A DNA stretch of 41,441 nt from Alphaproteobacteria bacterium (GCA_022823765.1 JAJEHK010000328.1:1-41441); one strand, 5' to 3'. Numbered from the stretch's first letter, positions 4,336-16,810 are shown. The notes: generated from the letters alone by a model not told the origin. Made by a program: numbers and translations.

Positions 4336-5019
4336 TTATCCGTCACCGGATCCCCTGGATGGAGCGCCGGATGACGGACCGTGACTGAACACCCCGGCGG
4401 CGGGCTGGATGGCGAGGTCGAGCGCGGTCAGAAAGGTCCGGCCGATCAGTTCCAGCTTGCGCACCAGACCGATGCGTTCGGCGATCCCGGCCAGTTCGTC
4501 GGCGGACAGGACATGGCCGATCAGCCCGCAGCCGTCTGCCAGCGTGACGATCACGATATCCCTCGGCTCGGGAATCGTGTCGGTCAGGAGCACGTCCCGG
4601 ATTCGTCCGAACAGCTCGCGCTCGACACTTGCATCGGCGAGGGCATAGTGCCGTGTGCCGAATATCCTGAGGAAGCGGTCATCGCTGACATCGAGGATGC
4701 CGTTGTCGACCAGGCGCGCCAGTGCGGTTTCGCGAATTGCGTCGGCGTGGTGGGTCGCATGCTCCACCCAGTAGAGCGCGTCGCGGGTCTGGTCGGATTG
4801 CGCAATCTCGACGAGTATCGGATCAAGCAGGGGATCGCCAACCGGCGCCGCGTCGATGAGGAACAGCCGCTCGGCATCGGTGTCGATGCGATTCTCCAAT
4901 GCGAGGTCCATCAGGACTGCCCCGCCCAGCGCGTAGCGGACCAGCCATTCCGGGGCCCGCGACAGCGCCCCGTCCTCGTCGCGGAGCAGGAGAAGGAACT
5001 CCTCGGCGAGCCTCATCAT
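4336..5019 (-). CDS. GOLPH3/Vps74 (GPP34)-like protein
   Basis: ATG 5019 overlaps the pit stop (ATGA); LAEEFLLLL, ALGGAVLMDLALENRI, GDPLLD..L..I, LARLVDNGIL....RFLRIFGTRHY resemble bacterial GPP34 family proteins. Confidence 0.75.
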   Translation of the reverse strand: MMRLAEEFLLLLRDEDGALSRAPEWLVRYALGGAVLMDLALENRIDTDAERLFLIDAAPVGDPLLDPILVEIAQSDQTRDALYWVEHATHHADAIRETALARLVDNGILDVSDDRFLRIFGTRHYALADASVERELFGRIRDVLLTDTIPEPRDIVIVTLADGCGLIGHVLSADELAGIAERIGLVRKLELIGRTFLTALDLAIQPAAGVFSHGPSSGAPSRGSGDG

Positions 5020-6284
5020 CCGGCCCCCTGAAGGAATACCGCAGACAGGACGAAGTAGAACGCAACCGCGAGCGCCGCTCCGACGGGAAGCGTCACCACC
5101 CACGATACGAAGATGTTGCGGACCACGCCCAGGTCGAGGGCGCCCACCCCACGCGCGAGACCCACCCCCAGCACGGCGCCCACCAGAGTCTGGGTGGTCG
5201 ATACCGGAAGTCCCGTGCCGCTCGCCACGACGACCGTCGACGCTGCGGCAAACTCGGCGGCAAATCCGCGGCTCGGCGTGAGCTCGGTGATTCTCCTCCC
5301 GATGGTCGCCATGACCCGGTAACCGAATGTCGCCAGGCCGACCACGATTCCGGCTGCGCCGACCAGCAGCACCCAGACCGGAACCGCCGACTTGGCGGCG
5401 ACCCCTCCGGTCGACACCACGCCCACGATCGCCGCGACAGGCCCGATCGCGTTGGCGACGTCATTGGAGCCGTGCGCGAAGGCCATGCCCGACGCGGTCA
5501 CGATCATGAGGATGCCGAACACCTTCTCGACGTCGTTGAACCGCGATTGCCCCCCTGTGGGAGATTCGAGGCTCTGGAAGCGCAATCTGTTGATGACCAG
5601 TCGGAAGATGATGGCGACGATGCCGGCCAGGAGCACCGAATACAGGATCGCCATCGGCATGCTGAGATCCAGGCCGACATGCTTGAGGCCCTTGACGAAG
5701 GTCACGGTGGCGGTCACGAGCACAGCCGCGAAGACGTAGACGGGCACATACCTTCGGGCCTGGATGGCCGGATTGTCCTTGTCGAAGATCAGCCACTGCA
5801 CGCTCAGCACCAGGAGAAACGCGATCAGTCCGGCGATCACCGGGGTGACCACCCAGCTTGCCGCGATCGTTGCCACGTCCCACCAGTGGACGGCCTCGAT
5901 GCCGATTGCGACCACGGCGAACCCGATGATGGCTCCGACGATCGAGTGCGTGGTCGATACGGGCCAGCCGAACCTGGAGGCGACCGTCAGCCAGGCGGCA
6001 GCCGCCAGAAGCGCCGACAGCATGCCGACGACCAGCAGATCGGGATCGTGCTCGAGAGCCTCGGCGTCGATGATGCCCTTGCGGATCGTCGAGGTGACCT
6101 CTCCGCCGGCAAGAAAGGCCCCGAGGAACTCGAATGTTCCGGCGATCACGATGGCGCCGCCGACCGTGATCGCGCCTGAACCAACCGACGTTCCCATCGA
6201 GTTGGCCACGTCGTTGGCGCCGATCGCCCAGGCCATGTAGAGACCGGCGGCGATTGCCGCGATCAGGATGATGGTCAGGCTCAT
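5016..6284 (-). CDS. pit: Inorganic phosphate transporter, PiT family
   Basis: Two PiT signatures GANDVANSMGT and HGSNDVANAIGP; PVSTTH and PVSTTQ; many hydrophobic segments. Confidence 0.93.
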   Translation of the reverse strand: MSLTIILIAAIAAGLYMAWAIGANDVANSMGTSVGSGAITVGGAIVIAGTFEFLGAFLAGGEVTSTIRKGIIDAEALEHDPDLLVVGMLSALLAAAAWLTVASRFGWPVSTTHSIVGAIIGFAVVAIGIEAVHWWDVATIAASWVVTPVIAGLIAFLLVLSVQWLIFDKDNPAIQARRYVPVYVFAAVLVTATVTFVKGLKHVGLDLSMPMAILYSVLLAGIVAIIFRLVINRLRFQSLESPTGGQSRFNDVEKVFGILMIVTASGMAFAHGSNDVANAIGPVAAIVGVVSTGGVAAKSAVPVWVLLVGAAGIVVGLATFGYRVMATIGRRITELTPSRGFAAEFAAASTVVVASGTGLPVSTTQTLVGAVLGVGLARGVGALDLGVVRNIFVSWVVTLPVGAALAVAFYFVLSAVFLQGAG

Positions 6285-6865
6285 GTCCACGGAGTAAGGC
6301 TCCCGGCTCCATCGCCGTTCGGCATGGGCATTCCAACGCACATCCGGTTCGAGTTCAACGTGCGCTTGCGCAACAGGGAAACACACCTTGCGGTCATCGG
6401 TCCCGGTCAGTCAGCCGCCCGTGCGACCGTTTCCCGGAATTCCTGGACGGCGCCGGCTCCCTTCCTGGATCACCACGCGAGGTTCCTGCCGGAAACCGCG
6501 CACGTCGTCCGTGACGTGATGCGTCAACCGGAGCCTCGTTCGCCATGGCGCCTTGTGCCGCATGTCCGCCGACCCGGTTCCACGCAAGACCGGGTGCGTC
6601 CTGCGCGGGACCCTTGCCTCACGTCCCGGGGGTGTTGCACGAAGCACCCCGTCCACTATCCTGTGATCTTGATGGATGCGTGAACTGCACCACAGGCATC
6701 AGGATATCAGCATGGCCCCATGTCCACGCTGAGATGCGGGCCTGGATGGATGACGCCCGCGACGGGTCCTGTGAGTTCCGACCCGCAAGGGGGAAGCCTG
6801 AGGGGCGGAGATAGCCAGACGAACCTGCAGGGCCTTCGCCCTGTTGTTCAAACCGGAGACATATC

Positions 6866-7858
6866 ATGCAGAGTATCATGAACCTCTTGTATTCAGCGCG
6901 ATCGCTGACCGTGCGAAAGGGTCCGGTCGGTGCCGCCCTTTGCGGCCTTGCCTTCGTTTTCGTGCCCCATGCGCAGGCCACGGAAGTCATGGTGAGCATC
7001 AAGCCAGTCCATTCCCTCGTCTCCGGCGTGATGGGAGAGACCGGAGAACCCGGGCTGATGGTCACGGGCGCCGCGTCGCCCCATACCTACCAGATGCGCC
7101 CGTCCGAGGCACAGGCACTGAACTCGGCGGACCTCATAGTGTGGATCGGCGAGAACATGGAGATGTTTCTCGAGCGTCCCATCGAGAACCTCGGAGCCGA
7201 TGCCGAGGTCGTCACCCTGCACGAGGTGGCAAGGATGGAATTGCTGGAGACCCGCGAGGGCGGGCTGTGGCCCGACGAGCACGACGAGGACAAGGAAATG
7301 CACGTCGACGAGCATGACGATCACGGTCACGAGCACGGCGAGTTCGACATGCACATCTGGCTCGATCCGGGAAATGCCGGCCGGATTGTCGAAGTCTCCG
7401 CCGACGCGCTCAGTCGCACCGATCCTGACAATGCCGAGATCTATCGCGCCAACGCCGATGCGATGCTGGAGCGCATCGATGCGCTGGAATCGTCGCTCGT
7501 TGAGCAGCTTGAGCCGGTAAGGCAGCGTGCATTCGTCGTGTTCCACGACGGTTACCAGTATTTCGAACATGCATTCGGTCTCAACACCATCGGCGCCGTC
7601 GCCGTCGATCCGGGCCGCCCGCCCGGCACGAAGCGGATCGTCGAACTGCGCGCCGCCCTTGTCGAGCACGATGTCCAGTGCGTCTTCATCGAGCCCCAGT
7701 TTCCACCGGACCTTGTAGAGACCCTGATCGAGGGAACGGCCGTGCGGACCGCGGAACTCGACCCGATCGGTGTCGATTTCGAAGCCGGTCCGGACGCATG
7801 GTTCGAGACGATGCGCGCCATCGGCGACGCCATTGCCGGATGCGTGGGCGACCAGTGA
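6866..7858 (+). CDS. znuA: Zinc ABC transporter substrate-binding protein
   Basis: Signal peptide, VSIKPVHSLV, ASPHTYQMRPS, acidic His-rich loop, DMHIWLDP, VFHDGYQYFE; GGAG RBS. Confidence 0.9.
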   Translation: MQSIMNLLYSARSLTVRKGPVGAALCGLAFVFVPHAQATEVMVSIKPVHSLVSGVMGETGEPGLMVTGAASPHTYQMRPSEAQALNSADLIVWIGENMEMFLERPIENLGADAEVVTLHEVARMELLETREGGLWPDEHDEDKEMHVDEHDDHGHEHGEFDMHIWLDPGNAGRIVEVSADALSRTDPDNAEIYRANADAMLERIDALESSLVEQLEPVRQRAFVVFHDGYQYFEHAFGLNTIGAVAVDPGRPPGTKRIVELRAALVEHDVQCVFIEPQFPPDLVETLIEGTAVRTAELDPIGVDFEAGPDAWFETMRAIGDAIAGCVGDQ

Positions 7859-7995
7859 ACCAGGTGGAGTGCACACCTGACATTCGACTTGCGGGAGGAT
7901 CACCTGCGGTCCCCAGAATTTGGTAGGGCTGCATCGACATCTCCAGTGCCATCGCATACCTTGTGGCACCGGGCCCCGCTGGATGAAGCGCTGTC

Positions 7996-10284
7996 ATGGA
8001 TCAACTGACGCTGTTCTTCGATTTCCTGTGGTCGTCGTTTCTCGTTCTGGCGCCCATGCTTCTCCTCGGCCTTTTCCTGGCCGGGCTGATCCATGTGTTC
8101 ATATCGCGTGAGGCCGTTCTGAAGTGGCTGAAGCAGGACAGCCTCAAGTCGGTCTCTTCCAGCGCGGCCATCGGTGTTCCCATGCCGCTCTGCAGTTGTT
8201 CGGTGGTGCCGGTCGTGGCCGAGATGCGCCGCAAGGGAGCGTCCCGATCGTCCTGCATGTCCTTCCTGATTACCGCTCCGGAGACCGGAGTGGACTCGAT
8301 TCTGGTCACCCAGGCGTTCTTCGGCTTCATTCCCGCAATCGTGAGACCCGTCGTCAGCTTCATCACGGGCGTGGTGGCGGGCATCTTCTGTATCGGGTTG
8401 ATCCGCGGTCGCGACTCGTTCGATGCGGTCGCGGAAGACGAGGACCATGATCTCCACGATCACGATCACGATCACGGTCACGGCCACTCCCACGGTCACG
8501 GTCACTCCCACAGCCATGAACCGCTTATTCCGGGTGCTGACGACTGCTATGTGAGCGGGCGCGAACTCAAGGGCTTCTTCCTGGTCTGGCTTCGCCGCCT
8601 CAGCGAGAACGTGGGGAGGATCCGGACCACGACATGGATCAAGCCGGAGTTCTACCGCGCGTACCTCGAGCCTGCCAGGGAGACGCCGTCCACGAGTTCC
8701 GAGTCGGAACGGAATCTTGGTGGCGTCACCTTCGCGACCGTCTGTCGACACATCCTGCGTTACGGCTTCGTCGACGTCGCCGACGATATCCTGTTCGCCC
8801 TGCTGGTGGGTGTCGCGCTCGGCGGCGTCATCTATCTTGCGATACCCAGCGACCTCATGGCTTACGAGTACGCGCGCTGGATCTCGTATCCCGTCATGGT
8901 CCTGGTGGGTATCCCGCTCTATATCTGCGCCTCCGCCAGCACGCCGATCGCGGCGGCCCTGGTCGCCAAGGGATTCAGTCCCGGCGCGGCGCTCATCTTC
9001 CTGATGACCGGTCCTGCCACCAACACCGGGACGATCGCCATCATCGTGAGCCAGTTCGGCGCGCGCTTTGCCTCCGTCTACGTCGGCTCCGTGGTGGCCG
9101 TGACGATGGTTCTGGGCATCGCCATCGATCTCCTCATGATCGCATTCGGGCTCTCGCTTGCCGTCAACCTGGACGCTTCCGACTCACCGGCGATCATGAT
9201 CGTCCAGTGGGGCGGCGCCATCGGGCTCATCGCGCTCATCATCTGGCGGTTCCGTGCCGGAGCGTTGAAGAGCGGATACCACGATCTGCTTTCGAACATG
9301 CGCCCGGTTTCCGTGCCGTTCAAGGCATGGTGGTCCCGCGTGACCCGCAGTGCATCGGTGACGGGGACCATCAACCCGCGCACGCCGGCCGGAAGGGCCG
9401 TCTGGCTGGCACTCGTCGCCGCATTCCTGCTGAGCGGTTTCACGGTCGTGAAGCCCGGCGAAGTCGGCTACGGACGCCTTTTCGGCGCGGTCGTGTGGAA
9501 GGACCTGCCGCCGGGCCTGCACTACCTTGCGCCCAGCCCCTTCGTCAGCGCCGACAAGTGGCCGGTCAGCGAAGTGAAATCCGTCAACAGCGGAGGCAGC
9601 TACGAGTACCTCACCGGCGATGTCAATCTCATGTCCATGTCGGTGAACGTGCAGTACCGGGTCAGCGATCCCTACTCCTATCACTATCGGACCGCGAACC
9701 CTGAACAGGCCATCGTCGACAATGTGCGCAAGGAACTCCGCAAGTTCGTGGCCGGGCGGTCCCTGGACGACCTGCTGAACGTCGAACGCGCGGCCCTGCA
9801 AACCCACATTGAAGATGTCTTCGAGGATCGTGTTCCGGGCGGCGACAACGAAGTGCTCGACACCATCGAACTCGTCAAGGTGAACCTGCTTTCCGCGAAG
9901 CCCATCGATGCAACGATGAGCGCCTTCAGGGAGGTCTCGAGCTCCCAGGACGACAGGGAACGCATCATCGTCAATGCCCAGCGCCTGCTGGTCATGGTGA
10001 TACCCCGGGCGCATGGCAATGCGGCCTACGAACTCGAGCAGGCCAAAGGGGAAGCGGCAAGGAGGACGATCACCTCCGGGGCGGAGAGCGAAGCCATTCG
10101 CCTGATCGCCGGCGTGGTTCGCCTGACACCCGAAGTCCTTCGCAACATGCTCTGGAGGGAGAAGCTGGAGGTCTCTCTCGCCGGCAGGAGCAAGATCATC
10201 GTCCCGAGCGAGGAAACCCTGAACAGGGTAGCCTTGTGGAAATCATCGAACGGCGGCGCCATGCCCATGGCGCCCCACCACTGA
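7996..10284 (+). CDS. ArsP/DUF318 (SO_0444-like) metal permease with His-rich loop, fused to C-terminal HflK-like SPFH domain
   Basis: PLCSCSVVP, ITAPETGVDS, GIPLYICASASTPIAA, FLMTGPATN permease motifs; after a TM helix (~9400) FTVVKPGEVG...PGLHY...YLTGDVNL..V.VQYRV.DP and AFREVSSSQDDRERII..A...IPRAHG.A (HflK-like); one uninterrupted 762-aa ORF. Confidence 0.82.
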   Translation: MDQLTLFFDFLWSSFLVLAPMLLLGLFLAGLIHVFISREAVLKWLKQDSLKSVSSSAAIGVPMPLCSCSVVPVVAEMRRKGASRSSCMSFLITAPETGVDSILVTQAFFGFIPAIVRPVVSFITGVVAGIFCIGLIRGRDSFDAVAEDEDHDLHDHDHDHGHGHSHGHGHSHSHEPLIPGADDCYVSGRELKGFFLVWLRRLSENVGRIRTTTWIKPEFYRAYLEPARETPSTSSESERNLGGVTFATVCRHILRYGFVDVADDILFALLVGVALGGVIYLAIPSDLMAYEYARWISYPVMVLVGIPLYICASASTPIAAALVAKGFSPGAALIFLMTGPATNTGTIAIIVSQFGARFASVYVGSVVAVTMVLGIAIDLLMIAFGLSLAVNLDASDSPAIMIVQWGGAIGLIALIIWRFRAGALKSGYHDLLSNMRPVSVPFKAWWSRVTRSASVTGTINPRTPAGRAVWLALVAAFLLSGFTVVKPGEVGYGRLFGAVVWKDLPPGLHYLAPSPFVSADKWPVSEVKSVNSGGSYEYLTGDVNLMSMSVNVQYRVSDPYSYHYRTANPEQAIVDNVRKELRKFVAGRSLDDLLNVERAALQTHIEDVFEDRVPGGDNEVLDTIELVKVNLLSAKPIDATMSAFREVSSSQDDRERIIVNAQRLLVMVIPRAHGNAAYELEQAKGEAARRTITSGAESEAIRLIAGVVRLTPEVLRNMLWREKLEVSLAGRSKIIVPSEETLNRVALWKSSNGGAMPMAPHH
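8445..8517 (+). repeat. Low-complexity (CAC-GAT/CAC-GGT)n tract encoding the His-rich loop HDLHDHDHDHGHGHSHGHGHSHSH
   Basis: Imperfect 6-nt tandem units directly visible inside the permease ORF. Confidence 0.8.
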
Positions 10285-10294
10285 GACGATCACC

Positions 10295-10320
10295 CGGGCG
10301 CCTCCGTGGAGACGCGCCCG
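10295..10320 (+). other. Intergenic stem-loop between fusion gene and hflC-like gene
   Basis: CGGGCGC-CTCC-GT-GGAG-AC-GCGCCCG; no U tract, so more likely an mRNA stability/processing element than a terminator. Confidence 0.4.
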
Positions 10321-10345
10321 CTACCGGAGCCGTAGGAGACTCGCC

Positions 10346-11245
10346 ATGACCAGAGGCAAACGGATTGCAGCCGTCATCGCAGTCCTGCTACTCGCCATCC
10401 TTGCCTGGGACAGCATCTACACCATTGATGAATCGCAGCAGGGCGTCCTCACCAATTTCGGCAAGATTGCAGCACCGGTGAAGGAACCGGGCCTGCATTT
10501 CAAGTTCCCCTGGCCCGTCTCGAAGGTCTACAAGGTTGACCGGCGCATCCATCCGCTCACGAACCTCAGTCAGGAGCTCATTACCGAGGACCAGAAGAAC
10601 GTCCTGGTCGACGGCTACCTGTTGTGGCGCGTCACGGACCCGATTCGCTACGTGGAATCGATCAGAACCGAGGCCAGGGCCGTCGAGCGGCTCAGCGATC
10701 TCTATCGATCAAGCGCCGGAATCGTGGTCAGCAACAAGCCCCGTGAAGTGTTCGTGAGCCTCGGCCTGGAACATCGGGACGTCTCCCTGATCTCCGGCGA
10801 GGTCCTTGATCTCGTCAAGCCGATTGCCGGGGACTATGGCATAGACGTCATGAAGATCGGCATCGTCGAGTACACCCTGCCGGCGGAAAACCGTCCCAGT
10901 GTCATTCAGCGGATGATCTCCGAACGCGCCCGAATTGCCGCACGTTACCGCAGCGAGGGAGAGGAAGCGGCCATACGCATCGAGGCCTATGCCATCCACG
11001 AGCACGAAAAGCTCATGGCCACCGCCCATGCCGAAGCCACCACCATTCTCGGAGAAGCCGAAGCCGAGGCGATGACCACGCTGGCCGCCGCGTACAGTGA
11101 AGACCCTGAATTCTACAAGTTCATCCGGGCACTCGACAGCTACGATGCGATCATCGACAAGAACACGACGCTGATACTCCCCGCCGACAGCGAACTGTTC
11201 AGGTATCTTGACGGCGACGGGATGTTGCCACCGGCACCGGAGTAG
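10346..11245 (+). CDS. hflC: HflC-like SPFH (band 7) protein
   Basis: N-terminal TM, EPGLHFKFPWP, LITEDQKNVLVDGYLLWRVTDP, RMISERARIAARYRSEGEE.A, AYSEDPEFYKFIRALDSY; AGGAG RBS. Confidence 0.85.
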   Translation: MTRGKRIAAVIAVLLLAILAWDSIYTIDESQQGVLTNFGKIAAPVKEPGLHFKFPWPVSKVYKVDRRIHPLTNLSQELITEDQKNVLVDGYLLWRVTDPIRYVESIRTEARAVERLSDLYRSSAGIVVSNKPREVFVSLGLEHRDVSLISGEVLDLVKPIAGDYGIDVMKIGIVEYTLPAENRPSVIQRMISERARIAARYRSEGEEAAIRIEAYAIHEHEKLMATAHAEATTILGEAEAEAMTTLAAAYSEDPEFYKFIRALDSYDAIIDKNTTLILPADSELFRYLDGDGMLPPAPE

Positions 11246-11257
11246 CGGTTCGAACTC

Positions 11258-12646
11258 ATGTCTGACACCTCTGCCGAACAACTCCCCTGGAGCACGCGCC
11301 TCATCTACTCAAGCTTTGACTGGGTGCGTGAACGCCGTCTGCTTCTGTCCCTGTCACTCGTGATCCTTGTTGTGTTCGTCGTGCTGGCCAACGGCCTCTA
11401 CGTCGTGAAAAAGGAGGAGCAGGCGGTCGTCACGCGTTTCGGCAAGGTGGTGGAGACCGACGTCCAGCCCGGCCTTCACTACGTGTTCCCGCTGATTGAA
11501 CAGGCCCACGTGCGGAAAGTCATGCGCGTGACCCGGCGAAACGTGGCAACTCAGGATGCGGACGGTAATGTCTATTTTTCGATCCTTTCGGGCGACACCA
11601 ACCTCTTCGAGGTGGATGTGGCGCTGCAGTACAGGATCGGGAATCTGAGGAACTATCTCTACGCGACTGCCGACCCGCATGCTGTGCTCGCTCTCGTCGT
11701 GCGCGAACGCCTGGTCGGCAACATGAGCAACAGCTTCATCGATCTCATATTCACCAACAACCGCGACATCATTCAAAGGCGTCTGTTCGAGGAAACCGAG
11801 GACTTTCTGGACGCCAACGACATCGGCGTCGAGTTGCTGGCGCTCAATATCGTGGGCCTGCGCCCCATCGATGAAACCGTGGCCGCTTTCCGCGATGTGA
11901 GCGATGCCATCGCCGAGAGCATCGAGACCGTGAGCGAGGCCAACAAGCGGGCGGAACGGCTCCTGGCCCGCAGCAGGGGCCAGGCTGAAGCAGTGGTGCT
12001 GAACGCCCGGGCCAGGGCGAGAGAACGCCGGGTGCAGTCCGCGAGCAGCGCGCAGGCCTTTCTGGACCTGCTGGACGCCTATCGAAACGAGCCCTCCTCG
12101 GTATCCACGACACGCTACTGGCAGAGAATGCGTGAAGTCTTCCGGGAGGCGACCCTGGCAAAGGTCAATCCGGACGACACCTCGACCATCGACATCAACA
12201 TGATCGAGAGTTTCGTGCCTGGTGTTGGCAAATTGCCCGCCGTGACCGCAGCCGCTGCGGCGCCCCTGGGGAGCATCGCCGGCGCCGCGTCCTCGATCAC
12301 GCTCGCAAGCGAGAGAGGAGCACACGGTCTCGAGGCGGTGCAGTCGGATCGTTTCCTCCTGGACGGACGGTTCCATTCTCCCATGAGCGAGCGCCATCAT
12401 CTTGGCGCTGCCGAACTGCGTTCCCTGATCTTCGACGATCTTTCCATCTTCTCTCATCGCCATGTCGCACCGACACCTGTCTGGACTGCGGTGGAGCAGA
12501 CCGAACAGCCGATGGTCGAGTCGACGGTCATCGACACGAGCGAAGAGGTCCAGAAGGGGCGGGAAACCTCGACGGCGACGACAACCGACTCATCGGAAGG
12601 GCAACACGCGTCGGCAGAAGAGAAACAAGATGGCGGCAACCATTAG
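11258..12646 (+). CDS. hflK: HflK-like SPFH protein with long C-terminal extension
   Basis: TM helix, EQAVVTRFGK, PGLHYVFP, ILSGDTNL, LQYRI, AAFRDVSDA, ARSRGQA; ~130-aa tail with scattered His. Confidence 0.78.
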   Translation: MSDTSAEQLPWSTRLIYSSFDWVRERRLLLSLSLVILVVFVVLANGLYVVKKEEQAVVTRFGKVVETDVQPGLHYVFPLIEQAHVRKVMRVTRRNVATQDADGNVYFSILSGDTNLFEVDVALQYRIGNLRNYLYATADPHAVLALVVRERLVGNMSNSFIDLIFTNNRDIIQRRLFEETEDFLDANDIGVELLALNIVGLRPIDETVAAFRDVSDAIAESIETVSEANKRAERLLARSRGQAEAVVLNARARARERRVQSASSAQAFLDLLDAYRNEPSSVSTTRYWQRMREVFREATLAKVNPDDTSTIDINMIESFVPGVGKLPAVTAAAAAPLGSIAGAASSITLASERGAHGLEAVQSDRFLLDGRFHSPMSERHHLGAAELRSLIFDDLSIFSHRHVAPTPVWTAVEQTEQPMVESTVIDTSEEVQKGRETSTATTTDSSEGQHASAEEKQDGGNH

Positions 12647-13811
12647 CCGTGTTGCCGCCCTCTTCATTGTGCTGACGGCGAGAGCCGCCTTCGACGCGTC
12701 GGCAGCGGCGCCGGGCGTCACCGAGAACTCCATCGTCTTCGGACAGAGCGGTTGCTTCAGCGGCTCCTGCGGGTATGCGGGCAACCAGTACCGCGGTGGC
12801 ATACTGACCGCGTTCCATGAATCCAACAGCGCCGGCGGCATCAACGGCAGGCAACTGGTACTCCTGGCGCTGGACGACGGCTACGATCCGGACCGGGCGG
12901 CAGCCAACGCGGACAGGTTCGTCGCCGACGACGAAGTGTTTGCCGTCGTGGGCGGTGTCGGCACGCCGACGACGGAACGCATGGCATCTATCTTCAGGGA
13001 GGAGATGATCCCCTTCGTCGGCCACCTCACGGGGGCCGAGTTCCTGAGAGAAGTCCGCAGGTATCCCAACGTGGTGAACCTGCGCGCCGGGTATTCCGAG
13101 GAAACAAGGCGCCTGGTCGAGCACTTCGTCGAGAACCTGAATGCCCGCCGGTTCGGTATCATTCATCAGGACGACTCGTTCGGTCGCACCGTGATCACCA
13201 GCTACGAGGATGCCTTGAGAGCCTTCGATCTCTCGATCCTTGCCAAGGCGGCCTATTCGCGGCACTCCCACGCCGTGCACTCGACCGTGTTCGTCATGGA
13301 AAAGGCGGATCTGGACGTCGTGTTGCTGGCCACGACTCTCGGGCCGGCCGCCGAGGTGATCAACACGTCGCGATCCCTTGGCAACGACTATGCCTTCGGC
13401 CTCCTGTCCTTTGTGGACACCGGGCTCCTCGAGGCATCGCTGGACTTCTCGGACGAACGGATCTTCCTGACCAGAGTCATCCCGGACTTCGCCAACGAGA
13501 GCAACGCGTTGGTGAGACGTTTCCGTCTCGCCCTCGACGACTACCGGAACACCGATCCGGAGGTCGTGGAGGATGTCGTGAGCCTGTTCAGCCTGGAAGG
13601 CTACATCGTGGGTCGATTCATCGTCGAAGTTCTCAAGCGCATGCCGAACGAAATGAGTCGGGAGGTCTTTCTGACAACGGCACTGTCGCGGGATCCCGTC
13701 CATATCGACGACTGGGTCATCGCCTTCGACGAGGGCAGCAATGCCGGTTCGGACTACGTGCGAATCGTCGATCTTTCCGGCTACTATTCTGAAAGGGAGG
13801 CCGCCGAGTGA
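12630..13811 (+). CDS. Periplasmic binding protein, LivK/branched-chain amino acid (type 1) family
   Basis: ATG 12630 overlaps hflK end; signal peptide; PGVTENSIVFGQS, GGINGRQL, LDDGYDP, GVGTPT, NLRAGYSEET, QDDSFG, SLEGYIVGR. Confidence 0.8.
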   Translation: MAATISRVAALFIVLTARAAFDASAAAPGVTENSIVFGQSGCFSGSCGYAGNQYRGGILTAFHESNSAGGINGRQLVLLALDDGYDPDRAAANADRFVADDEVFAVVGGVGTPTTERMASIFREEMIPFVGHLTGAEFLREVRRYPNVVNLRAGYSEETRRLVEHFVENLNARRFGIIHQDDSFGRTVITSYEDALRAFDLSILAKAAYSRHSHAVHSTVFVMEKADLDVVLLATTLGPAAEVINTSRSLGNDYAFGLLSFVDTGLLEASLDFSDERIFLTRVIPDFANESNALVRRFRLALDDYRNTDPEVVEDVVSLFSLEGYIVGRFIVEVLKRMPNEMSREVFLTTALSRDPVHIDDWVIAFDEGSNAGSDYVRIVDLSGYYSEREAAE

Positions 13812-14296
13812 AGAAACTCCATGACTTTTCCCTTGAAGAGACCGGCCAGGAGTGGCTCCGGGAGGGATACAAGGTCGTTGCGATGCGCCGCAACGTCATG
13901 TTCCGGATGCTCCTCGAGTCGGTTCGTCTTCTCCTCTTCGGCAATGCCGGAGGCGCTGCCCTCATTATCGGTTTCATGAGCGCCACCACGGGTGAGAACG
14001 AGGGGGCCTTCCACTGGTTTGCGCTTGCGACGGTGCTGGTCTTCGGTCTGGGCACGCTGACATCGGCGCTGAGCATGATTCTCGTCACCCTGGTTTCCAT
14101 CAAGGAGGCACACGGTGCCGAAACCGCCCTGAAACGTTTCGCCGACGGCGACGACAACAATTTCCAGGTCATGTTCAATATCGAAGGCCAGACCTGGCGC
14201 CTTGCCGACTGGAGCACGCTCACCGGTATCGTCAGCGCCGCTACCTTCATCGTGGGCGGATTGGCCGGTGTCGCGCTGCTGGTGGTGTTCTTCTGA
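13808..14296 (+). CDS. Hypothetical membrane protein (about 3 TM helices)
   Basis: GTGA overlap with upstream stop, GGGAGG RBS, three hydrophobic stretches. Confidence 0.7.
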   Translation: MKKLHDFSLEETGQEWLREGYKVVAMRRNVMFRMLLESVRLLLFGNAGGAALIIGFMSATTGENEGAFHWFALATVLVFGLGTLTSALSMILVTLVSIKEAHGAETALKRFADGDDNNFQVMFNIEGQTWRLADWSTLTGIVSAATFIVGGLAGVALLVVFF

Positions 14297-14557
14297 AGAC
14301 CTCCACCGGTCTTCCGATTCGGATGCATGCCGCACCCGATCAGCCCAAGACTGGAAGCGTTGCGGCATTCTCCCCGACCGCAGCTTCGGATGGCTTTCCC
14401 GAGCATGAGTCCGGCCCGGCGCGCCGTGTCCTGATGGAGACGAACTGGCCGGTTCGGCAGTCTCCGATCGGGTCATCCCCTCGGGAGGGGCCACCAATGA
14501 ACGAAGTAGCAGGTCCTGTCGGGCCGCGGAATCCACCTGGCTCCGGGTGCGCGAACG

Positions 14558-15361
14558 ATGGCCGGTGACGTCTCACGGACACGACCGCTGATCGAGGCGC
14601 GGGGCGTAAGCGTGAATTTCGGGCGGCGCAATGTGCTGGACAAGGTGGACATTGCCGTCCATGCCGGGGAAATCGTGACCCTGGTCGGTCTCAACGGTGC
14701 GGGCAAGTCAACGCTGATACGCGTGTTGTTCGGTATCGTCCGTCCCGACCTCGGCACGGTCGCGCGAACCCCGGGACTGCGCATCGGCTATTCGCCCCAG
14801 CACGTACACCGCGATCCGATTCTTCCGATGACCGTCCGCGGATTCCTCACTCTGGGCGCGCCGGCGCCACGTGACAGACTCGAGAACGTGCTCTCTGAAG
14901 TCGGCGCCGGCGCGATTCTCAACCACCCCCTGTCCGAAGTTTCAGGTGGAGAGCTTCATCGCGTGCTTCTTGCGCGAGCCCTGTTGCGCGAGCCCGGCCT
15001 GCTCGTGCTCGACGAACCGCTTGCGGGAGTCGATGTTGCCAGCCAGGGCGAACTCTACCAGTTGATCGCGACCATTCGGGACCGCTATGGCTGCGGTGTG
15101 CTTCTCGTCTCGCACGATCTGCACATGGTCATGGCCGCAACGGACACCGTGGTATGCCTCAACCGGCATGTGTGCTGCACCGGCCATCCGAGAACGATCA
15201 CGCGCCACCCGGAATTCGTCTCCCTGTTCGGACCGCATGTGGCGAACGCGATTGCGGTCTACCCGCACCGGCACGACCATCGCCATGACGAGCATGGCAA
15301 TCCGGTGCCGATCGATGGCGACGGTCCGACAGGGCCTGACACGTTCGGCGGACGGCGATGA
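14558..15361 (+). CDS. znuC: Zinc ABC transporter ATP-binding protein
   Basis: Walker A GLNGAGKST, VSGGELHRVLLARAL, LVLDEP, SHDL, CLNRHVCCTGHP and His-rich C-terminus. Confidence 0.9.
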   Translation: MAGDVSRTRPLIEARGVSVNFGRRNVLDKVDIAVHAGEIVTLVGLNGAGKSTLIRVLFGIVRPDLGTVARTPGLRIGYSPQHVHRDPILPMTVRGFLTLGAPAPRDRLENVLSEVGAGAILNHPLSEVSGGELHRVLLARALLREPGLLVLDEPLAGVDVASQGELYQLIATIRDRYGCGVLLVSHDLHMVMAATDTVVCLNRHVCCTGHPRTITRHPEFVSLFGPHVANAIAVYPHRHDHRHDEHGNPVPIDGDGPTGPDTFGGRR

Positions 15362-16164
15362 CGGAAGATTTCGTTCTGCGCGCGCTCGCGGGCGGAATCG
15401 GCGCGGCGCTCGCGGCGGGCCCCGTCGGCTGCTTTGTCATCTGGAGACGCATGGCCTACTTCGGCACGGCGCTTGCCCATGCGGTGCTTCTCGGAATCGC
15501 TCTGGGCTTTCTCCTGGAACTGGAGCCGTTCGCCGGGGTCTTCGCCATGTGCTTCATCCTCGCGGGATGCCTGATTCTTCTGGAACGCCAGCGTCTCGTT
15601 TCTCTCGACGCCCTGCTCGGGGTGCTGGCCCACGCGGTGTTCGCGGCGGGCCTCGTCGTCATCGCGTTCATGGAACGCCTGAGGGTCGACCTTGTCGGCT
15701 ACCTCTTCGGCGACATCCTCTCCGTCGGCGCGGTCGACCTGTGGCTCATCTACACCACCGCGGCCGTTTCGATAGCCGCGCTTGTCTGGCAGTGGCGCAA
15801 CCTTCTCTCCGTGACCGTCAACCGGGACCTCGCCGCAGTGGAGGGAGTGCCCGTGGAACGCGTGCGGTTCCTGCTCCTGCTCCTGCTCGCCGGAGTGATC
15901 GCGGTGGGGATGAAGATCGTCGGAATGCTTCTCGTCGTGGCGCTGGTGATCATTCCCGCCGCCGCTGCGCGCCGCGTGTCGGCAACACCCGAACAGATGG
16001 CCGTTGCATCATCGATCATCGGAATCGTCGCGGTCGTCGCTGGTCTCTTCGGTTCGCTGGAGTGGGACGTTCCGGCCGGGCCGGCCATCGTGCTCGTCGC
16101 AAGCCTGGCCTTCGCCGCGAGCCTGCTCATCCCGAGCCGCAGCCGGCAGGGCCGCGAAGACTGA
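15358..16164 (+). CDS. znuB: Zinc ABC transporter permease
   Basis: ATGA overlap; GCFVIWRRMAYFG.ALAH, YLFGDIL, MKIVG.LLV.AL.IIPAAAAR, TPEQMA. Confidence 0.92.
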   Translation: MTEDFVLRALAGGIGAALAAGPVGCFVIWRRMAYFGTALAHAVLLGIALGFLLELEPFAGVFAMCFILAGCLILLERQRLVSLDALLGVLAHAVFAAGLVVIAFMERLRVDLVGYLFGDILSVGAVDLWLIYTTAAVSIAALVWQWRNLLSVTVNRDLAAVEGVPVERVRFLLLLLLAGVIAVGMKIVGMLLVVALVIIPAAAARRVSATPEQMAVASSIIGIVAVVAGLFGSLEWDVPAGPAIVLVASLAFAASLLIPSRSRQGRED

Positions 16165-16285
16165 TTCCCGGAACGCCCGTTGCAGGCGGCGGCCGTCCCG
16201 TCCGTTCCCCGGCGAACGTTCCTTGCCGGATGGTGACGGACAGGGCATAACCGGTCGGAACTGTCATCTTCGGGACATCAGGATC

Positions 16286-16810
16286 ATGGACATGAAGCTG
16301 CTTCACCGGGCGATCGGCGCCCTCGTCTTTCTGATCATCGCCTCTGGCGCCTCGGCGGCCGACATGGCCTCAGCACGAATCATCAATGCAGACGGGCTGG
16401 AGGTTGGCAGCGTGACATTCCAGCAGGCTCCCACCGGCGTGTTGGTGTCGGTTGACGTCACGGGATTGCCACCTGGCGGCCATGGTATTCATCTCCATGG
16501 CGTCGGATCCTGCTCCCCCGACTTCAAGGCGTCCGGAGGCCACATCAATCCTGAAGGCGTCCCGCACGGCCTGCTCAATCCCGGGGGCGGCGACAATGGC
16601 GACCTGCCCAATCTCTATGCGGCGGCGGATGGTTCCGCACGGGCCGAGTTCTTCACCACGCGCGTGTCGCTGAAAGGCGGCGATCTGCCCGCGCTGCTCG
16701 ACACGGACGGTTCGGCTGTCATCATCCACGCCAGCCCGGATGACCACATGTCTCAGCCTATCGGCGGCTCCGGCGGGCGTATTGCTTGCGGCTTGATCGA
16801 AGGCATGTAG
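16286..16810 (+). CDS. sodC: Periplasmic Cu/Zn superoxide dismutase family protein
   Basis: Signal peptide; HGIHLH, GGHINP, HG, GDLPNL, IIHA..DD, GGRIACG; start 16286 or 16292. Confidence 0.88.
   Translation: MDMKLLHRAIGALVFLIIASGASAADMASARIINADGLEVGSVTFQQAPTGVLVSVDVTGLPPGGHGIHLHGVGSCSPDFKASGGHINPEGVPHGLLNPGGGDNGDLPNLYAAADGSARAEFFTTRVSLKGGDLPALLDTDGSAVIIHASPDDHMSQPIGGSGGRIACGLIEGM

Follow-up and report, generated by a model that had tools for sequence, protein, structure and literature searches.

In Escherichia coli, HflK and HflC, two subunit types with N-terminal anchors and periplasmic SPFH and coiled-coil regions, form a cage around FtsH (7vhp, 7wi3, 9cz1, 9cz2). Permeases of the SO_0444 family (NF033936, PF03773; founder SO_0444 of Shewanella oneidensis) are stand-alone proteins of about 350 residues. 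The closest experimental parallel to the locus described here is, as far as the accessible parts of three reports go, the PA2439-PA2434 operon of Pseudomonas aeruginosa, in which three tandem SPFH genes of the HflK/HflC family occur with the Zn/Cu importer HmtA (PMC4542158, PMC8531726, PMC11761036). According to these parts, the operon is induced 9-14-fold in a znuA mutant (PMC4542158), its proteins rise under zinc depletion (PMC11761036), its promoter is bound by Zur only with zinc (PMC8531726), and its genes are called poorly annotated by the authors. The window analysed here, 41,441 bp long, is the whole of contig C336 of an alphaproteobacterial assembly of 3.53 Mb in 349 contigs (GCA_022823765.1, JAJEHK010000328.1). 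Between positions 6866 and 16810 it carries a row of genes in which an SO_0444-type permease fused to an HflK-like SPFH domain is followed by genes for an HflC-like protein, a second HflK-like protein (HflK2), a LivK-like periplasmic binding protein and a small protein with three transmembrane helices (3-TM protein). These five genes, termed the cassette below, lie between znuA and znuCB. It appears on balance probable that the window harbors a horizontally spread zinc-homeostasis island, the core of which is this self-contained five-gene module.

The permease-SPFH fusion comprises 762 aa. Its residues 12-416 align to positions 2-348 of the 351 positions of NF033936 (SO_0444 family Cu/Zn efflux transporter) with 321.7 bits, above the equivalog cut-off of 300, and the N-terminal 420 residues share with this family paired P-x-C-S-C and I-C-A-S-A motifs and a His-rich central loop. 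A CSC motif is located at 66-68 and a His/Asp loop of the (H/D)n type at 148-175. The SO_0444/ArsP_1 permease (residues 1 to about 420) is followed by a basic linker (420-463), a transmembrane (TM) anchor (464-488) and an HflK-like SPFH domain with coiled coil (472-741). As read from the gene, the permease is covalently joined to the HflK-like domain via the linker and one predicted TM helix, which, together with the five-gene setting, distinguishes it from the stand-alone members of the SO_0444 family. Invariant across 24 fusions are the cysteines of the CSC motif (C66, C68), C87, C184, C311, several histidines of the central loop and much of the SPFH part. For the permease part, no related entry was found among solved structures. 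The SPFH part matches E. coli HflK (7vhp_E, E = 2.5e-23), and the HflK profile TIGR01933 gives 119.8 bits, below its cut-off of 159.4. Ahead of the anchor helix, the 44-residue linker contains seven K/R residues versus one D/E. Hydropathy and charge place this linker in the cytoplasm and therefore the fused SPFH part in the periplasm. An HflK/HflC-type topology, with a single N-in anchor and a periplasmic SPFH domain, is thus what was obtained, in a weak test using only hydropathy and the positive-inside rule. A complex prediction for permease residues 1-460 with the 3-TM protein scored 0.01 and gave no answer, bearing on neither side of the interpretation. One relative of the fusion (P0055, 796 residues) contains a Zip domain (PF02535) besides ArsP_1 and Band_7 and may be yet another fusion, in this case to a ZIP transporter.

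A scan of metagenome contigs revealed 50 loci, which were grouped into 34 lineages at a nucleotide identity of at least 97%. The permease is fused in 23 of them, unfused in eight, and three are cut by a contig end. All 18 fused lineages with enough downstream DNA show the genes for the fusion, the HflC-like protein, the HflK-like protein, the binding protein and the 3-TM protein in this order and in the same orientation, and the remaining five, on shorter contigs, are consistent with it as far as the sequence reaches. An earlier note on this DNA had proposed a dedicated metal-handling system, and a five-gene unit is indeed conserved beside metal genes: zinc importer genes (znuABC or ZIP) adjoin the cassette in 14 of the 18 complete lineages. 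The whole locus including its flanks is also present, at 85-99% protein identity, on the complete 4.13-Mb chromosome of a genome of the same genus (G410). Among 8,000 candidates from public proteins that were scored, 747 relatives of the fusion were detected at E <= 0.001. The top 120 of these align over almost their whole length at 59-90% identity, and both Pfam domains are present in 117; those few of the 120 that bear a name stem from metagenome-assembled genomes (MAGs) labelled Gammaproteobacteria, Defluviicoccus, Gemmatimonadota and Opitutae. A full-length fusion was not found in 400 other genomes of the same class, 19 of which matched the permease or the HflK part alone (25-41% identity). 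With the HflC-like protein, 131 of 400 genomes of G412's class were matched, all at 31-38% identity and taken as canonical HflC; this tally includes G708 and G720, which are flagged as unpublished, and G660 was not scored. A second match in G590 was set aside as a further HflK/HflC pair. In PLSDB, none of 52 matching records covers at least 80% of the fusion, which is therefore on no plasmid of this database.

More distant forms were obtained from a scan of genome contigs with a single protein. It gave 16 loci with unspecific patterns, of which L007, L008 and L009 were useful. L008, from an unclassified MAG, and L009, from Planctomycetota, contain genes for the fusion, the HflC-like and the HflK-like protein in cassette order at 24-41% identity and are without the binding-protein and 3-TM genes. 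In a FastTree phylogeny of the permease domain, L008 and L009 are sister to all close forms (support 1.0), and the eight unfused permeases (410-457 residues) occupy dispersed positions within the fused clade: L079 and L007 join L063 (1.0), L083 joins L060 and L065 (1.0), and L082 joins L061 (0.94). The simplest reading of this tree would be an ancient fusion followed by repeated loss of the SPFH part.

The two stand-alone SPFH proteins of the cassette have basic N-termini and are most similar to the E. coli proteins. For the HflC-like protein, the best structure is HflC (7vhp_G, E = 1.7e-37), and TIGR01932 yields 171.9 bits, above the cut-off of 134.4. HflK2 is best matched by HflK (7vhp_E, E = 8.6e-41, profile positions 25-326), with 129.8 bits for TIGR01933, again below 159.4. 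Similarity of the cassette SPFH parts to QmcA (8z5g) is much weaker (E = 1.7e-6 to 3.9e-8). The stomatin/QmcA-NfeD systems likewise consist of an SPFH oligomer encoded with its own membrane partner, no NfeD is encoded here, and QmcA cages reportedly face the cytoplasm (PMC13086221). Six Band_7 matches are present in the genome: three in the window, an adjacent pair on contig C211, and a flotillin-like open reading frame (ORF) of 565 residues on C254. The pair on C211 is a canonical hflK-hflC pair with both proteins above cut-off (TIGR01933, 260.9 bits; TIGR01932, 194.9 bits). This settles in the negative whether the SPFH genes of the window could be the only HflKC of the genome, an objection the earlier note had raised against its own proposal. 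A phylogeny of the three SPFH domains agrees with this result. It comprised 81 sequences: the three parts from 12 cassette loci, 20 sequences each of housekeeping HflK and housekeeping HflC, taken from this genome and from members of two classes, and the SPFH parts of two distant fused loci; the duplicate locus L124 was dropped. The tree, a quick IQ-TREE search in which long-branch effects are possible at deeper joins, separates an HflC-type from an HflK-type half with a support of 100. The cassette HflC-like proteins (98, inside the HflC-type half), HflK2 (99) and the fused SPFH parts (100) each form a clade of their own with a long stem, outside the housekeeping clades (support 96-97). The SPFH genes of the cassette are paralogues dedicated to it and distinct from the housekeeping pair.

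These paralogues could act on the permease by way of proteolysis. They would recruit FtsH, for which the genome has one gene (on C115), and the tether would present the permease for rapid metal-dependent degradation, so that the module would be a turnover switch. The best matches of all three SPFH parts in FtsH-containing structures (7vhp, 7wi3, 9cz1/2), the HflC-like protein above its equivalog cut-off and the single FtsH fit such a role. Yet no copy of ftsH was found beside the cassette at any locus examined, the two HflK-like parts fall under the HflK cut-off and sit on long branches, and neither the binding protein nor the 3-TM protein would be accounted for. We regard proteolytic control as improbable. 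Compared with E. coli HflK/HflC, there are three subunit types instead of two, one of which carries its client covalently, a separate canonical pair is retained in the genome, and HflK2 has an additional tail. This C-terminal extension of about 130 residues, absent from canonical HflK, contains a conserved His/Asp/Glu motif at residues 356-402 (window positions 12323-12463). In 19 sequences, H356, D364, G370, H373, E378, R379, R388-S-L, F392-D393, F398 and H400 are invariant, which makes the motif a possible periplasmic metal site. The ESM Atlas gave no usable match for the tail.

An AlphaFold2 (AF2) model of the binding protein has a LivK-type two-lobe fold (predicted local distance difference test score, pLDDT, 87.1). 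Its nearest structures are 4kv7 (template-modelling score 0.81, 30% identity), 3lop and 4m88, structural-genomics entries without assigned ligand. Genes for a Liv-type ABC transporter were detected neither in the window nor among the recurrent neighbours of the cassette, and the binding protein is an orphan in this respect. The 3-TM protein has no match in Pfam or NCBIfam and consists of three hydrophobic helices with nearly no periplasmic exposure. Over 20 sequences the mean column identity is 72%, and the cytoplasmic segments EE..EEWLRE.YKV..RR and KEAHGAE are strongly conserved. The family is tiny: among 1.84 billion proteins, only 40 representatives reach E <= 0.001. Its named members are MAGs only, from four phyla, and Pseudomonas is not among the named members listed. 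In the ESM Atlas, only unnamed clusters were matched, and in G412's class none of 401 genomes. TRAP and TTT tripartite transporters consist of a binding protein, a small and a large membrane subunit. The cassette resembles them by analogy only, in that a large secondary-type permease is encoded together with a small membrane protein and a binding protein; the families, here Peripla_BP_6, the unnamed 3-TM family and ArsP_1, are unrelated.

These features suggest how the module might work. The three SPFH proteins, with N-in anchors and periplasmic SPFH domains, would co-assemble into a ring or cage in which HflC-type and HflK-type subunits alternate as in E. coli HflK/C, and this assembly would hold the tethered permease at or inside itself. 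Binding protein, 3-TM protein and permease would act together in the manner of TRAP/TTT secondary uptake, and the His motif of the HflK2 tail would provide a periplasmic metal site. A bolder version, for which we see only a slim chance, is a closed periplasm-facing SPFH chamber over a patch of inner membrane that would enclose the permease, the 3-TM protein and the binding protein. Zinc or a zinc chelate would be passed among permease, binding protein and His tails, shielded from ligands such as ZnuA. If true, the module would be a private metal-handling compartment and the permease the first defined non-protease client of an HflK/C-type cage.

Outside the cassette, gene content varies among lineages. 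In six of the 18 complete lineages znuABC (40-94% identity) is located beside the cassette, in four different arrangements and with znuCB only in L051/52. In eight, a ZIP gene follows straight after the 3-TM gene, co-directional in five of these. Neither is found in four lineages, three of which have less than 2.4 kb of flanking sequence. The distant trio of L009 (28-41% identity) has a ZIP gene directly upstream. A gene pair for a PiT/PHO4-family transporter and a GPP34-domain protein, divergent from znuA and travelling with the island, had not been mentioned in the earlier note. It occurs in four of the 18 lineages, in which PiT is 80-91% identical (97% in G410), and the pair is more conserved than the cassette itself. 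NCBIfam gives only sub-threshold CysP and PitA matches for PiT. GPP34 homologues adjoin the cassette in L047/48, L050/70, L051/52 and L072/73/92/96 and are also near the unfused permeases of L079 and L007; we know of no role for bacterial GPP34 proteins. In L056, L057 and L065, two ORFs of about 190 and 317 residues recur between a membrane fusion protein (MFP) gene and the cassette, both without Pfam or NCBIfam match.

The sodC gene at the end of the row is adjacent only in the window and in its sister genome G410 (85% identity) and is missing after znuB even in L047/L048, the fusion of which is 88% identical. It is therefore a lineage-specific chance neighbour outside the conserved system, and a role in SodC metallation, which had been among the proposed functions, finds no comparative support. 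A Znu transporter split by the cassette, as the earlier note had put it, is likewise the arrangement of one lineage; elsewhere, znuABC is on the other strand, upstream, or replaced by ZIP. What stands of that interpretation is that, in the context of zinc, a metal permease is tied to SPFH proteins dedicated to it; the part of SodC, the independence from FtsH and the split Znu as a design are left without such footing. Since neighbours vary and sodC is confined to two genomes, the row of nine genes represents separable modules as arranged in a single lineage; what stays constant is the five-gene cassette, and what recurs is zinc transport. One could go further and take the cassette as a mobile insertion in a znu locus, with znuA, cassette, znuCB and sodC working and being regulated separately. 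Gaps of 137, 261 and 121 nt between the modules would allow for this, as would the variable arrangement, the unconserved sodC and the relaxase genes described below. However, the zinc association survives rearrangement and large distances (14 of 18 lineages and L009), and ZnuABC of the island goes with the cassette: the ZnuA of G410 is 93% identical, whereas in those other genomes of the genus that match best, identity is only 37-44%, with no match in two. A merely accidental insertion is therefore, in our judgement, very unlikely.

Several findings point to horizontal spread of the island. The cassette is rare in species-representative genomes, and ZnuA is divergent within the genus. YidC, encoded in the right flank, is about 71-73% identical to its counterparts in genomes of the genus, while the fusion has 79% identity with a protein that is labelled Gammaproteobacteria. 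In two of the 18 lineages (L050/L070 and L052), genes for TrwC-type relaxases are located within 3 kb upstream of the cassette, which suggests carriage on conjugative or mobilisable elements there. Base composition (cassette GC 0.616, genome GC 0.637) gave no clear foreign signal, and synteny at the DNA level with G033 and G210 of the same genus was uninformative beyond yidC.

Regarding the direction of transport, we favour, at best slightly, that the module serves zinc acquisition or allocation in zinc shortage, beside ZnuABC here or ZIP elsewhere, and not bulk detoxification. This preference, which is drawn from gene content and sequence motifs, is based on the analogy to TRAP/TTT transporters, the importers as neighbours and Zur-like boxes in other lineages. 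On the uptake side are also the obligatory binding protein, which has no ABC partner among the recurrent neighbours, and the 4-nt overlap of its gene with that of the 3-TM protein. A search with the E. coli Zur motif, taken from the part of PMC6103462 that was accessible, allowed up to three mismatches, with about 0.1 matches per locus expected by chance. Matches were found in L070/L050 and L054 within the 200-530 nt preceding the cassette, and in L072/L073 at the promoter between the divergent znuA and znuCB, the former being followed by the cassette; a single match in L076 is at an unrelated site.

The opposite assignment is export of Zn and Cu (and Cd) by the fused permease, as by stand-alone SO_0444 proteins. 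The ring of SPFH proteins would merely stabilise or gate the permease, the binding protein would sense periplasmic metal or a ligand, and the system would be induced by excess or would clear mis-imported metals. Several findings are on this side and weigh against an uptake role. The score above the equivalog cut-off of an efflux family was mentioned before, and the only experimental data on the permease family, as far as the accessible parts of the reports go, point to efflux: mutation of SO_0444 results in Zn/Cu sensitivity, and a ZntR-like regulator is encoded beside the gene (PMC3219624), and a family member in Nitratiruptor is induced by Cd and Cu (PMC10092412). Genes for Czc/Cus-type MFP and/or AcrB-type resistance-nodulation-division (RND) proteins are next door in nine of the 18 lineages. 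Zur-like matches at cassette or znu promoters are limited to four of 21 representative loci, with none in 17, and their significance is overstated by whole-locus shuffling because they are AT-rich stretches in GC-rich DNA. The window and the cassette locus of G410 contain neither a match to the E. coli Zur motif at this threshold nor the palindrome CAACGTTATAACGTTG, and a Zur-like gene was not found in this, possibly incomplete, assembly. Also against the main reading, the unfused permeases nest within fused clades, so that the permease is evidently able to work without the ring. An AF2 model of the full-length fusion from 24 similar sequences has a mean pLDDT of 45.8 and is unusable.

Against detoxification, the cassette is on the same strand as importers and separated from them by short gaps (ZIP in five lineages; znuA here, in L047/48 and in L072/73), and co-transcription with importers would imply a futile cycle if the same metal was moved. 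The Zur-like boxes upstream in three lineages also speak against it. Periplasmic binding proteins, which to our knowledge are known from uptake and sensing and not from efflux, are counted here on the same side. Detoxification is for these reasons considered the less likely assignment, with perhaps one chance among several, and zinc acquisition or allocation is kept as the tentative one.

Absence of ftsH and zur from the window, as the earlier note had it, was confirmed; Fur-family genes are on contigs C226 and C85. G410 contains a zur-like gene (L160, G410:C1, about 646 kb) with two CxxC motifs, which scores 101.7 bits for NF008646 and so stays under the cut-off of 167. This gene is the first of a second znuCBA-like operon, about 45 kb away from the island, and the perfect 16-bp palindrome CAACGTTATAACGTTG stands in front of it; neither the gene nor the operon was found in the window's assembly. 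A different element is present upstream of znuA. The imperfect inverted repeat GGGGGTGTTGCACGAAGCACCCC contains the only GTGTTRCA of the 41-kb window and is kept in G410. GGTGTTRCA with a partial inverted partner is located 86-234 nt before the first gene of the operon in the window, G410, L056, L063 and L072/73 (also L119), and in L009 about 180 nt before ZIP, as a perfect palindrome there; for L056, L063, L072/73 and L009 the distances are 86-180 nt. The word was defined post hoc on three loci, with the window and L009 used afterwards as an informal check, and the element is a candidate operator. A sigma-54 reading of the word GGTGTTGCA, noticed by eye, was rejected, as the GG/GC spacing does not fit.

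The features of the island are listed in Table 1. The row consists of nine co-oriented genes, as the earlier note had described it, with two starts to be corrected. For the binding protein, the most likely start is the ATG at 12630, at the signal peptide, instead of 12462; the 56 codons upstream are an Arg-rich alternative frame of hflK2. For sodC, it is most likely the ATG at 16286 instead of 16004, as the hydrophobic N-terminus of SodC comes after M95 of the long ORF. With these starts, the intergenic spacing is, in order, 137, 61, 12, -17, -4, 261, -4 and 121 nt; the binding-protein start overlaps the hflK2 stop by 17 nt and the GTG start of the 3-TM gene overlaps the binding-protein stop. 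The five cassette genes are therefore tightly packed, as are znuCB, and gaps wide enough for promoters separate znuA, znuCB and sodC from the cassette.

Table 1. Positions of predicted genes and of a candidate operator in the island (window numbering)
Feature	Position	Strand	Evidence or remark
GPP34-domain protein	4336..5103	-	PF05719 129.3 bits; overlaps end of PiT gene; extended island
PiT/PHO4-family transporter, divergent from znuA	5016..6386	-	PF01384 391.7 bits
Candidate operator, imperfect inverted repeat GGGGGTGTTGCACGAAGCACCCC	6628..6650	+	PiT-znuA intergenic region
ZnuA-type zinc-binding protein, His/Asp-rich loop	6866..7858	+	PF01297 226.9 bits
Permease-SPFH fusion, 762 aa	7996..10284	+	ArsP_1 154.1 bits and Band_7 41.4 bits; NF033936 321.7 bits
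HflC-like SPFH protein, N-terminal TM anchor	10346..11245	+	TIGR01932 171.9 bits
Second HflK-like SPFH protein (HflK2)	11258..12646	+	TIGR01933 129.8 bits
LivK-like type-I periplasmic binding protein, signal peptide	12630..13811	+	Peripla_BP_6 149 bits
3-TM protein, 162 residues, GTG start	13808..14296	+	no Pfam/NCBIfam match
ZnuC-type ATPase, His-rich C-terminus	14558..15361	+	NF007090 297.6 bits
ZnuB-type permease	15358..16164	+	PF00950 231.4 bits
Periplasmic Cu/Zn superoxide dismutase SodC	16286..16810	+	PF00080 133.2 bits

The Znu profiles are the best NCBIfam matches of the respective proteins, though each remains just under its cut-off: 239.3 bits versus 268 for ZnuA (NF007091), 297.6 versus 306 for ZnuC (NF007090) and 276.9 versus 284 for ZnuB (NF007089). 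The Pfam matches of ZnuA and ZnuB are clear (Table 1), and ZnuA is the sole PF01297 match of the assembly. ZnuC ends in HRHDHRHDEH. SodC has a Sod_Cu domain and a signal peptide, with 189.1 bits for NF047632, below the cut-off of 250. His/Cys clusters, said to be carried by most genes of the row, are clear in ZnuA, the fusion, ZnuC and HflK2; none is present in the HflC-like protein, ZnuB and the 3-TM protein. Genes for an acyl-CoA dehydrogenase and an enoyl-CoA hydratase, then GPP34 and PiT, make up the left flank, and an amidase gene, yidC, folD, argG and rlmN the right; both flanks of the island are ordinary chromosome. A tRNA gene was not found in the window, Rfam gave no match between 4000 and 18500 at E <= 0.1, and a scan of the locus for promoters and terminators was near shuffle expectation. 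A 23-codon ORF (14497-14568) behind a strong GGGAGGG ribosome-binding-like site overlaps the start of znuC. The site and the first codons are kept in G410 and L048; further upstream, indels of lengths not divisible by three speak against a coding function there. The ORF may be a leader peptide, or a segment with a regulatory role.

The arrangement has not, to judge from the accessible part of the literature, been described before. Searches on SO_0444, on SPFH-permease fusions with HflC and metal, and on SPFH proteins with zinc or ZnuABC found no description of the fusion or the cassette, and the only work found that links HflC/HflK with Zur under zinc limitation was that on P. aeruginosa (PMC4542158, PMC8531726, PMC11761036). 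The operon of that species was likened to the cassette by description, not by sequence, and differs in its transporter, HmtA being a separate P-type ATPase and not a fused ArsP_1 permease. What is new is a scaffold of the HflK/C type to which a transporter is covalently tethered as client, accompanied by two more dedicated partners.

How SPFH or HflK/C cages affect the membrane proteins inside them is still a matter of debate, and in the main bacterial model the client is a protease. A transporter tied to its scaffold by evolution, in a set kept intact across phyla, is a natural case for the effect of a scaffold on a transporter. As client, partners and zinc context are named in advance, genetics, metal assays and cryo-EM are straightforward to design. 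The cassette also flags a component of bacterial zinc homeostasis not found described in the literature searched, and it may explain the so far unexplained Zur-controlled SPFH trio of P. aeruginosa.

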